A stretch of DNA of 64,000 nucleotides from Escherichia coli (GTDB lineage: Bacteria; Pseudomonadota; Gammaproteobacteria; Enterobacterales; Enterobacteriaceae). The position numbers were made by a program, and so were the translations under genes. Under the pieces are notes generated by a model. It searched no databases and was not told the origin of the DNA. It saw only the letters and a list, made by a program, of their open reading frames with translations. The DNA is taken from NCBI RefSeq assembly GCF_003334815.1, contig NZ_QOWO01000004.1, one strand, 5' to 3'. This document shows, piece by piece, positions 3,694 to 4,144 of the stretch; positions within the stretch are counted from its first letter, which is position 1, and every line of letters begins with the position of its first letter.

Positions 3694-4087
3694 TGGTATC
3701 GGTCATTTTACCCGATGCTGCGTGACGCCTTATAACTTCAGCAATGAAGCGTTGTCTGTGGTACATGGACATTACAGCGGGGGTGTGGGTCCGGCTGTAA
3801 ATCGCCGAATCGTTTCCTGTAGGCCGGGGCAGCCCACATGGATGTGGGCTGAGGGCGCGTTTTACAGGGATGTTACCTCGCGCCCGTACCCGATAGCCGA
3901 AAGGAATAAGATGAGGGAACCGCGCCAGCGGCGATTTACCGCCGGGAGCCCGGGTTGCCAGGGTGGTGGCGATTGAGCCACCCTGGCACGTTCACCGGCT
4001 TGAGCGTTCCATAGTAGCGAGGAACATCAAGTGAACGGAACAGCCTTCGATCTTACATATTCAGAATATAATGGTGCCGCCGCGAAC

Positions 4088-4124
4088 GCCTGATGCGACG
4101 CTTTACGCGTCTTATCAGGCCTAC
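4088..4124. repeat. REP (repetitive extragenic palindromic) element
   Basis: GCCTGATGCGACGCTTTACGCGTCTTATCAGGCCTAC, a typical E. coli REP palindrome between yegH and asmA. Confidence 0.7.
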
Positions 4125-4144
4125 AGGACAGGTCACCTGGTAAC

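Follow-up and report, generated by a model that had tools for sequence, protein, structure and literature searches.

A probable intact copy of the TRIP1/RRS repeat in the spacer between yegH and asmA of Escherichia coli

We analyzed a stretch of 64,000 nucleotides of Escherichia coli DNA (contig NZ_QOWO01000004.1 of assembly GCF_003334815.1, in the following called the window) with respect to the intergenic spacer between yegH and asmA. This spacer probably consists of an intact copy of the TRIP1/RRS repeat (RRS, replication risk sequence) and a repetitive extragenic palindrome (REP). The copy at yegH–asmA is a new and divergent member of this already known family, its single-strand fold is under selection at the level of the family, and the shorter spacer of E. 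coli K-12 can be traced to a deletion that removed the 5′ half of the element.

Results

Identification of the repeat

According to the sequence and the list of open reading frames (ORFs) the stop codon of yegH lies at position 3693 and asmA, which is encoded on the minus strand, ends at position 4145. These boundaries bear out the spacer length of 451 bp given in an earlier note that had been made from the letters of this DNA alone. The complete spacer is 100% identical to that of E. coli FDAARGOS_943.

A core of 270 bp within the spacer, with a GC content of 61.9%, is homologous to TRIP1 (Table 1). In BLAST comparisons the window copy showed 85.7% identity to TRIP1a and 85.2% to TRIP1c of K-12 over 189 bp (E 4e-54), the alignment with TRIP1a spanning positions 3799–3983. 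With an nhmmer profile of the family the region 3784–4040 was found at 252 bits as the sole match in the window, and neither the sequence nor the profile search gave further copies elsewhere in these 64 kb. When, however, the central 241 bp were compared with the complete E. coli genomes, more places with 78–86% identity were found (median three per genome), namely between lysO and aqpZ, between proX and an MFS gene (ygaY), between efeU and putP and between alx and sstT. The earlier note had thus correctly recognized a structured non-coding miniature repeat, which belongs to a family found in every complete E. coli genome. An alignment of five copies defines a common unit of ~215–270 bp with compensatory changes in the hairpins.

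The TRIP1 repeat family has been described by Rudd 1999 and by Li et al. 2024 (PMC10888264). The latter work describes the five loci a (aqpZ-lysO), b (putP-efeU), c (dusC-mdtQ), d (alx-sstT) and e (copA-ybaP), a GC content of 62–65% and a “double-Y” fold. TRIP1 has been equated with the RRS (PMC11194060), which were introduced by Pham, Cox and Goodman (PMC10287960, 2023; PMC11194060, 2024; preprint 10.64898/2026.06.16.732529, 2026), RRS-lysO being TRIP1a and RRS-dusC being TRIP1c (PMC10287960, PMC11194060). We reached the family name via the literature on the flanking genes of a paralogue; the literature on RSA, BoxC and ERIC, which had been considered as candidates, gave no identification. 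The five TRIP1 loci described by Li et al. (PMC10888264) include neither yegH-asmA nor proX-ygaY, and neither yegH nor asmA is mentioned in the two published RRS papers (PMC10287960, PMC11194060).

The copies fall into two types. The A-type comprises the window copy, the copy at proX and most of those from Enterobacter; its 5′ arm reads GGTCCGGCTGTAAATCGCC, its 3′ domain GTTCAC...GTGAACGGAAC and its 3′ stem GTTCAC/GTGAAC. B-type copies are RRS-like, with the 5′ arm GGTGGCGTCAAAATCGCC, the 3′ domain GCTCCTTGCGCC...AAGGAGCGCAAC and the 3′ stem GCTCC/GGAGC. The proX-ygaY copy (L006:2488-2796, E. coli DG341-1; L numbers denote the loci compared) shares ~81% identity with the window copy across 229 bp and runs in the same direction as proX.

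The perfect palindrome CAGCCCACAT-GG-ATGTGGGCTG and the hairpin with a 9-bp stem formed by CCAGGGTGG and CCACCCTGG, both pointed out in the earlier note, are indeed present, at 3830–3851 and 3958–3986, that is 2 and 1 bp away from where they had been placed. The REP was also found as described; it is supported by a partial match to Rfam naRNA4 at 4049–4121 (33.1 bits), and its sequence recurs at many other sites among the loci compared. Protein coding was rejected, as had been expected in the earlier note: the ORFs 3668–3976 (+), 3862–3981 (−) and 3738–3839 (−), of 102, 39 and 33 amino acids, have no NCBIfam match, and copies of the element are distinguished by indels of 1–2 nt, which argues against coding.

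The K-12 deletion and other alleles

In both BW2952 and MG1655 the K-12 spacer measures 273 bp and not about 155 bp as stated in the earlier note; the excess in the window is therefore 178 bp instead of about 300 bp. The K-12 spacer aligns to window positions 3684–3716 and 3887–4154, and the 3′ 258 bp of the window spacer are already present in K-12 with 97.7% identity. An 8-bp direct repeat, TACCCGAT, marks the end points of the difference, and the K-12 junction reads TACCCAAT directly followed by AGCCG. The right copy of TACCCGAT lies inside the element: a homologous ACCCGGT/ACCCGAT occurs in all paralogues, and the family homology crosses this repeat and runs on for ~150 bp into sequence retained in K-12. 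What remains in K-12 is the 3′ half, a sequence from within the element, and K-12 therefore has a 5′-truncated element. Intact orthologues flanked by yegH and asmA were found in E. albertii (L011), E. whittamii (L079) and three other Escherichia (L019, L037, L064).

These comparisons indicate that the K-12 state is a 178-bp deletion between the 8-bp direct repeats and that the element is ancestral in the genus Escherichia. With orthologues in other Escherichia and with the 3′ half left in K-12, the strain-specific insertion proposed in the earlier note was mistaken in polarity as well as in scope. Deletion between short direct repeats across strongly folding DNA is the expected product of replication slippage, and the K-12 deletion would carry the classical signature of such an event.

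The locus is highly variable within the species. The full spacer is present in 26% of the complete E. coli genomes (counts in Table 1) and the 178-bp deletion of K-12 in ~40–45% of E. coli, with ~26 of 60 evenly spaced rows of the comparison having the corresponding 1023-bp span. A second deletion allele lacks 159 bp (~3795–3947) and has its end points at a CCGG microhomology, and a third one has lost ~384 bp, leaving a 67-bp spacer with the REP alone. In yet another allele, present in O157:H7 and others, the whole spacer including the REP has been replaced by a relE/parE-HTH (helix-turn-helix) toxin–antitoxin cassette of 745 bp (L098:395-1139, E. coli strain 108; also L099:786-1233). The products of this cassette are a toxin of the RelE/ParE family and an HTH protein, and ~13% of the evenly spaced rows have it; strain e1-39 has an intact TRIP1-like element and then a partial toxin–antitoxin cassette. 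To sum up, the locus is deleted or truncated in ~74% of the complete E. coli genomes, and from the several independent deletions and the 26% share of the full allele we conclude that the copy at yegH–asmA is dispensable and not essential.

Outside E. coli, at loci L019 (~8665–8720), L037 and L079, an extra REP separates the TRIP1-like element from the yegH stop codon. In these cryptic Escherichia clades and in E. whittamii it replaces the sequence found at 3694–3772 in E. coli and E. albertii.

Single-strand fold and its loops

Folded as single-stranded DNA (ssDNA), the 270-nt core reaches −76.3 kcal/mol compared with −48.7 ± 3.7 kcal/mol for shuffled sequences (z −7.45), and the antisense strand −68.7 kcal/mol (z −7.13). 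RRS-lysO, with −83.6 kcal/mol (z −7.04), has the same helix layout as the window copy. Folding as RNA gave z −5.1 for 3735–4065 and −4.3 for the other strand. The layout comprises a long closing stem with inner helices, hairpin 1, hairpin 2, a small hairpin, a GC hairpin and a 3′ stem–loop, and it matches that of TRIP1a; in the TRIP1 unit in general a 9–12-bp GC hairpin and a 3′ stem–loop come after the closing stem with its two hairpins. The TRIP1 unit can be pictured as a GC-rich module of ~270 bp whose G-rich strand would fold on itself into the conserved double-Y.

The fold is backed by covariation. RNAalifold analysis of 58 non-redundant enterobacterial copies yielded 54 base pairs, 25 of which show compensatory changes. 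In the alignment 97.5% of the cells pair, compared with 36–45% when the partners are slid by 1–3 columns; sliding also lowers the number of compensatory pairs from 25 to 5–12 and the covariation score from 0.288 to at most 0.064, and none of 500 shuffles attained the observed pairing and covariation values. In hairpin 1, for example, CG (38 copies) is exchanged for GC (20) and GC (33) for AU (24), and at helix 13 the GTTCAC/GTGAAC stem of the A-type matches in position the GCTCC/GGAGC stem of the B-type. Selection at the family level thus maintains the single-strand fold. There are 33 G·U compared with 15 A·C pairs on the G-rich strand, which is modest evidence that this strand is the folding one; RNA and ssDNA are indistinguishable by this measure.

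The apices of the two hairpins read CAUGGAUG and CAGGGAUG, and each contains CANGGANG, which we take to be the core of the CsrA/RsmE consensus, (A/U)CANGGANG(U/A). Of 82 distinct full copies, 75 have the motif two times on the sense strand and none has it on the antisense strand; two or more occurrences were reached in 31 of 5000 shuffled elements. Hairpin 2, with TTACAGGGATGT, agrees in 11 of 12 positions with RUACARGGAUGU, reported as the CsrA consensus from systematic evolution of ligands by exponential enrichment (Dubey 2005; Schubert 2007). The conserved GGA loops hint at a possible role as RNA or in protein binding.

Orientation and the G-quadruplex core

RRS stall E. coli DNA polymerases. 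Wherever an RRS is placed with its G-quadruplex (G4) strand as lagging-strand template, gaps of ~2 kb arise that are bound by RecA and SSB; the inverted RRS gives no RecA/SSB peak in vivo, and in vitro gaps at lower frequency for which the C strand is responsible. Conditional essentiality is reported for at least one of the two RRS (RRS papers, as cited above). At a fork, the strands of the unwound duplex would fold and obstruct the DNA polymerase, and the outcome would be a transient gap left in the lagging strand. This mechanism derives from the two studied paralogues, RRS-lysO and RRS-dusC, and only by analogy might it extend to yegH–asmA, where the observations concern membership in the family, the covarying fold, the polarity of the deletion, the orientation and the allele frequencies.

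The gene order of the window is that of K-12 and the cumulative GC skew is negative. As a control, the G4 core was found on the top strand in TRIP1a at 0.915 Mb and on the bottom strand in TRIP1c at 2.229 Mb, as published. On these grounds we infer that the G-rich strand of the window copy serves as leading-strand template: it corresponds to the top strand, and the equivalent position in K-12, 2.139 Mb, belongs to the left replichore. Since the G4 core is in addition degenerate, the window copy is by analogy with the RRS probably at most a weak gap trigger, acting via the C strand and at low frequency. The 5′ arm of the GC hairpin coincides in part with the proposed G4. The pairs of this hairpin covary (helices 11 and 12), and therefore the hairpin and not the G4 is probably the feature conserved throughout the family.

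Table 1. Positions of the features in and around the yegH–asmA spacer (window coordinates)
Feature	Position	Strand	Evidence or remark
Intergenic spacer, full-length allele	3694–4144		full allele in 1425/5426 complete E. coli genomes
TRIP1/RRS-family repeat core, divergent A-type; sense (G-rich) strand = + strand of the window	3776–4045	+	BLAST, nhmmer, alignments
Segment missing from K-12, 178 bp; 5′ half of the element including both GGA hairpins	3717–3894		alignment
Direct repeat TACCCGAT, left copy, at K-12 deletion junction	3709–3716	+	
Direct repeat TACCCGAT, right copy, internal to the element	3887–3894	+	
Closing stem, 5′ strand AAATCGCCG	3799–3807	+	pairs with 3929–3937; RNAalifold helix 1, 4/8 pairs compensatory
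Closing stem, 3′ strand CGGCGATTT	3929–3937	+	RNAalifold
Hairpin 1, perfect 10-bp stem, apex CATGGATG (3837–3844)	3830–3851	+	4/6 scored pairs covary
Hairpin 2, GGGCGCG/CGCGCCC stem, internal loop, apex CAGGGATG (3865–3872)	3853–3885	+	
GGGTTGCCAGGGTGGTGGCG, homologous to the RRS G-quadruplex core GGGGGTGCAGGGGGCGGCGG, shorter G-runs	3952–3971	+	alignment
GC hairpin CCAGGGTGG-(11 nt)-CCACCCTGG	3958–3986	+	helices 11 and 12, 5/7 pairs compensatory
3′ stem–loop domain ACGTTCAC...GTGAACG enclosing GTTCC...GGAAC	3988–4040	+	helix 13, 3/5 pairs compensatory
REP, outside the TRIP1 element	4088–4124		partial Rfam naRNA4 matches, both strands

Distribution of the family

The family was collected from 100,044 species genomes with a pattern spanning the two hairpin apices, which gave 85 stretches. 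After removal of four chance matches (L028, L029, L070, L077) most of the remaining stretches came from Escherichia, Citrobacter, Enterobacter, Kluyvera, Leclercia, Lelliottia, Trabulsiella, Pseudocitrobacter, Pseudescherichia and Silvania; some genomes have several copies, and Klebsiella also has copies. A search for carriage by phages gave no phage match. The 28 “plasmid” records with the family were all typed as non-mobilizable, and among the 15 records listed most are of megabase size, one 133-kb Citrobacter plasmid being among the exceptions. We take the megabase-size records as mislabelled chromosomes or fragments, so that true plasmids are essentially without copies. Two copies from metagenome-assembled genomes, L018 (“Bacillota bacterium”) and L015 (“Proteobacteria bacterium”), match Enterobacter and the E. 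coli yegH-asmA locus, respectively, almost exactly; probably they reflect binning contamination and not a spread beyond the Enterobacteriaceae.

In Enterobacter the element lies within a unit of ~450 bp that is present several times per genome and is bounded by inverted repeats of ~30 bp, CCCTCTCCC-TGTG-GGCTGAGGGATCCCCAGTAA and TTGTGGGGAACCCTCAGCC-CTGTG-GGAGAGGG (L045:~1506–1975, Enterobacter hormaechei; L073:~330–800; L012, L013, L014, L033, L072, L074, L087). A BoxC-like CCCCTCACCCCAGCCCTCTCCCTCAAGGGAGAGGGGG follows the 3′ end of the element there. The unit looks like a miniature inverted-repeat transposable element (MITE) with TRIP1 as cargo.

Several genera have an optional insertion of ~77 nt, always at the same site, which separates the two-hairpin core from the CCGCG...CGG hairpin (L027:1127–1206, Citrobacter sp. 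R56; near L040:1529 and L017:3323; also L079). It adds stem–loops, AAAATTGCAGGGAGCAATTTT and GCCCCAGTGATGGGGC in L027 and, at the same positions, CGGGAGCAATTTT and GCCCCAGGGATGGGGC in L040 and L017; in L079 the second stem–loop is partial (AGGGATGGGCC). In Pseudocitrobacter, Lelliottia, Citrobacter, Kluyvera and Pseudescherichia there are also head-to-head pairs of divergent copies with their 5′ ends only tens of bases apart, for example L016:1843–2152(−)/2186–2428(+), L065:1475–1783(−)/1810–2048(+) and L027:1056–1364(−)/1408–1653(+), with similar pairs in L023, L025, L052–L057 and L017. One copy of each pair represents a third, more distant subtype. Its apices in L016 and L065 are CCATGGATGG, which is the TwoAYGGAY consensus loop, and ACAGGA(C/T)GT.

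Elsewhere in the window the segments 32001–40000 and 48001–56000 have a G+C content of 0.477 and 0.436, respectively, compared with 0.51–0.55 in the rest, and a strongly negative GC skew. They may have been acquired horizontally.

Discussion

The homology to TRIP1a and TRIP1c, the profile match and the common covarying fold lead us to favor an intact TRIP1/RRS copy plus a REP as the content of the spacer. Several points weigh against this reading or against carrying over to the window copy what is known of the RRS. Li et al. 2024 required a length coverage of at least 80% of the TRIP1 query, and the window copy covers 189 of the 266 bp of TRIP1a in the BLAST alignment, that is 71%, and thus falls short of this value; this coverage and the diverged 3′ domain explain why the locus is missing from their survey. 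The window copy is without the RRS G4 core GGGGGTGCAGGGGGCGGCGG (sequence from PMC11194060) and has GGGTTGCCAGGGTGGTGGCG in its place, a 20-mer with a G4Hunter score of ~1.15 (computed by hand) compared with 2.3 for TRIP1a. The G4 is weak across the A-type in general, with mean G4Hunter maxima of 1.42 in A-type and other copies and 2.39 in B-type/RRS copies, and the G4 model may therefore not transfer to the family as a whole. In K-12, which has only the 3′ half at yegH–asmA, the only peaks reported are those at lysO and dusC. Finally, a model in which any stable fold would do leaves unexplained why 75 of the 82 copies keep CANGGANG in the two apical loops of one strand.

The last point leads to the most serious alternative, that the element acts as RNA. 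Read through from yegH as 3′ untranslated region, it would adopt a TwoAYGGAY-like fold in which a CsrA dimer is bound by the GGA loops at the two apices, and it would act by titrating CsrA or by making the stability of the host mRNA dependent on CsrA, with dusC, alx and proX as other upstream genes. We consider this rather unlikely, even though a number of observations speak for it. TwoAYGGAY (RF01731) is the best Rfam match of every copy tested including both K-12 RRS, over the full model length and on the sense strand, with 30.6–36.6 bits (31.5 bits and E 0.012 for the window copy), and clan CL00106 of Rfam groups TwoAYGGAY with CsrB. All these scores stay, however, below the gathering score of 43, so that the covariance-model search suggested in the earlier note returned sub-threshold TwoAYGGAY and partial naRNA4 matches and no family at gathering score, and a curated RNA family was rejected. 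TwoAYGGAY has been proposed as a CsrA-binding RNA by Gardner and colleagues (PMC4333381); no paper on AYGGAY in the literature searched concerns TRIP1 or RRS. In favor of the RNA are furthermore the two sense-strand GGA motifs themselves, which lie 28 nt apart, and seven copies found only by the profile search, which keep GGA at both apices despite different stems; the conservation of the second loop is, on the other hand, partly circular, as the collecting pattern fixed this loop in most copies. The ~77-nt insertion, seen in at least three genera, adds stem–loops with a CAGGGA, CGGGA or CAGGGATG apex, and sponges of the CsrB type expand in such a modular way. The excess of G·U pairs also points to the sense strand, but it is, like the covariation, equally consistent with a folding G-rich DNA strand.

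As to transcription, the stretch from the yegH stop codon to the element contains no terminator. Neither a sigma-70-like promoter nor an intrinsic terminator was found around the three copies scanned (window copy, TRIP1a and TRIP1c), and an independent small RNA gene was rejected for this reason; the sRNA-like nature suggested in the earlier note gained no direct support. With respect to the upstream gene the element is in sense orientation at four of six E. coli loci, whereas at the other two, aqpZ and putP, it is antisense, which is not beyond chance. In the K-12 tables of CsrA cross-linking and immunoprecipitation (CLIP) sequencing and co-purification dusC and ybjE (lysO) are marked “No”, aqpZ and yegH were not found among the entries listed in the CsrA CLIP supplementary table, and the flanking genes are unmentioned in the main texts of the E. 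coli and Salmonella CsrA CLIP papers. Because promoter and terminator are missing at these three copies, the orientation is mixed and a CLIP entry for dusC or ybjE is lacking, we keep the CsrA/RNA explanation as a rival and not as the main one. A broader form of it, which we likewise regard as doubtful, is that the whole TRIP1/RRS family may be a protein-binding structured nucleic acid of the TwoAYGGAY/Csr-Rsm kind in which the fold and the loops and not the G4 are selected. The loops would then be recognized either in RNA, by CsrA, or in the unwound G-rich strand, by a different sequence-specific factor, the replication gaps would be a consequence or one facet of the structure, and the G4 would be confined to the B-type.

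Less probable still are two further explanations. A recent strain-specific insertion of a mobile MITE-like element into a short K-12-like spacer, which we consider highly improbable, could draw on the 8-bp direct repeat that bounds the 178-bp difference, which is readable as a target-site duplication, and on the multicopy Enterobacter units with their inverted repeats, from which it follows that the family was probably mobile once. Yet the right “duplication” lies inside the element with the homology continuing for 150 bp into sequence shared with K-12, four further species or clades of Escherichia have intact orthologues, the other alleles have different deletion end points, and copies are absent from phages and essentially absent from true plasmids. 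Moreover, the window copy has no terminal inverted repeats, such repeats being found only around the Enterobacter copies, and a MITE at this locus was rejected on this ground and because of the internal right copy of TACCCGAT. It is also improbable, if somewhat less so, that the element is a local barrier or 3′-end stabilizer between the convergent genes yegH and asmA that blocks read-through and 3′ exonucleases like a REP. Six of the E. coli copies do lie 38–96 bp downstream of a stop codon (PMC10888264 and the loci examined here), the spacer has no canonical terminator and the hairpins are very stable. However, a REP is already present for such a role, alleles with the REP alone (67-bp spacer) or with the toxin–antitoxin cassette exist, family copies are not always located between convergent genes, and a barrier leaves the conserved loops and the multi-helix fold unexplained.

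An intact TRIP1/RRS copy remains our preferred reading, and as such the finding is largely an ordinary one, a known repeat family with K-12 as the deleted state. Its interest lies in the RRS, a class of chromosomal signal that was put forward only recently: programmed post-replication gaps flanking the terminus, with two E. coli copies studied. The yegH–asmA copy provides a third, naturally polymorphic relative in the opposite replication orientation and without the G4 core. The natural alleles (intact, 5′-deleted, core-deleted and fully deleted) form an allelic series for asking which part matters, and a G4-less, inverted copy could separate the G4-centered from the protein-binding model. The covarying fold and the conserved GGA loops raise a testable alternative to the G4-centered model, and their link to TRIP1/RRS is new in the literature searched.

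Comparison with known systems

The element resembles CsrB, CsrC and RsmZ in the GGA at hairpin apices, the CA-N-GGA-N-G flanks and the modular gain of GGA hairpins. CsrB and CsrC have ~13–22 GGA sites, whereas the window element has two conserved sites and neither a promoter nor a terminator of its own, and no CLIP signal is recorded for the genes beside the paralogues of the window copy. It also resembles TwoAYGGAY (RF01731; Weinberg 2010) in the long closing stem and two adjacent hairpins with A-Y/R-GGA-Y apices. Loop 1 (AUGGAU) fits AYGGAY, and loop 2 (AGGGAU) has a G at the Y position of the definition (Weinberg 2010 supplement). The TwoAYGGAY model is, however, without the GC hairpin and the 3′ stem–loop domain of the window element. 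Among the gamma-proteobacterial members of the original alignment there is at least one, NC_008709, that is not E. coli (Weinberg 2010 supplement).

Like REP and the bacterial interspersed mosaic elements, ERIC, BoxC and MITEs, the element is a short, structured, intergenic and multicopy enterobacterial repeat. REP and BoxC are much shorter, however, and their folds less elaborate. The family is low-copy in E. coli, and the copies there have neither terminal inverted repeats nor a target duplication. In Enterobacter, inverted repeats and the BoxC-like motif CCCTCTCCC...GGGAGAGGG frame the family copies.

From the RRS the window copy differs in the missing G4 core, in the inverted orientation and in not being paired symmetrically about dif. 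It belongs, however, to the same repeat family, has a comparable ssDNA stability on both strands and lies in the same chromosome region as RRS-dusC, ~90 kb on the terminus side. The differences from TRIP1 are that yegH–asmA is outside the five described loci, that the copy is of the A-type and that its coverage of TRIP1a is limited. It is like TRIP1 in homology, intergenic site, GC content, double-Y fold, strain-variable presence and its location 80 bp past a stop codon.

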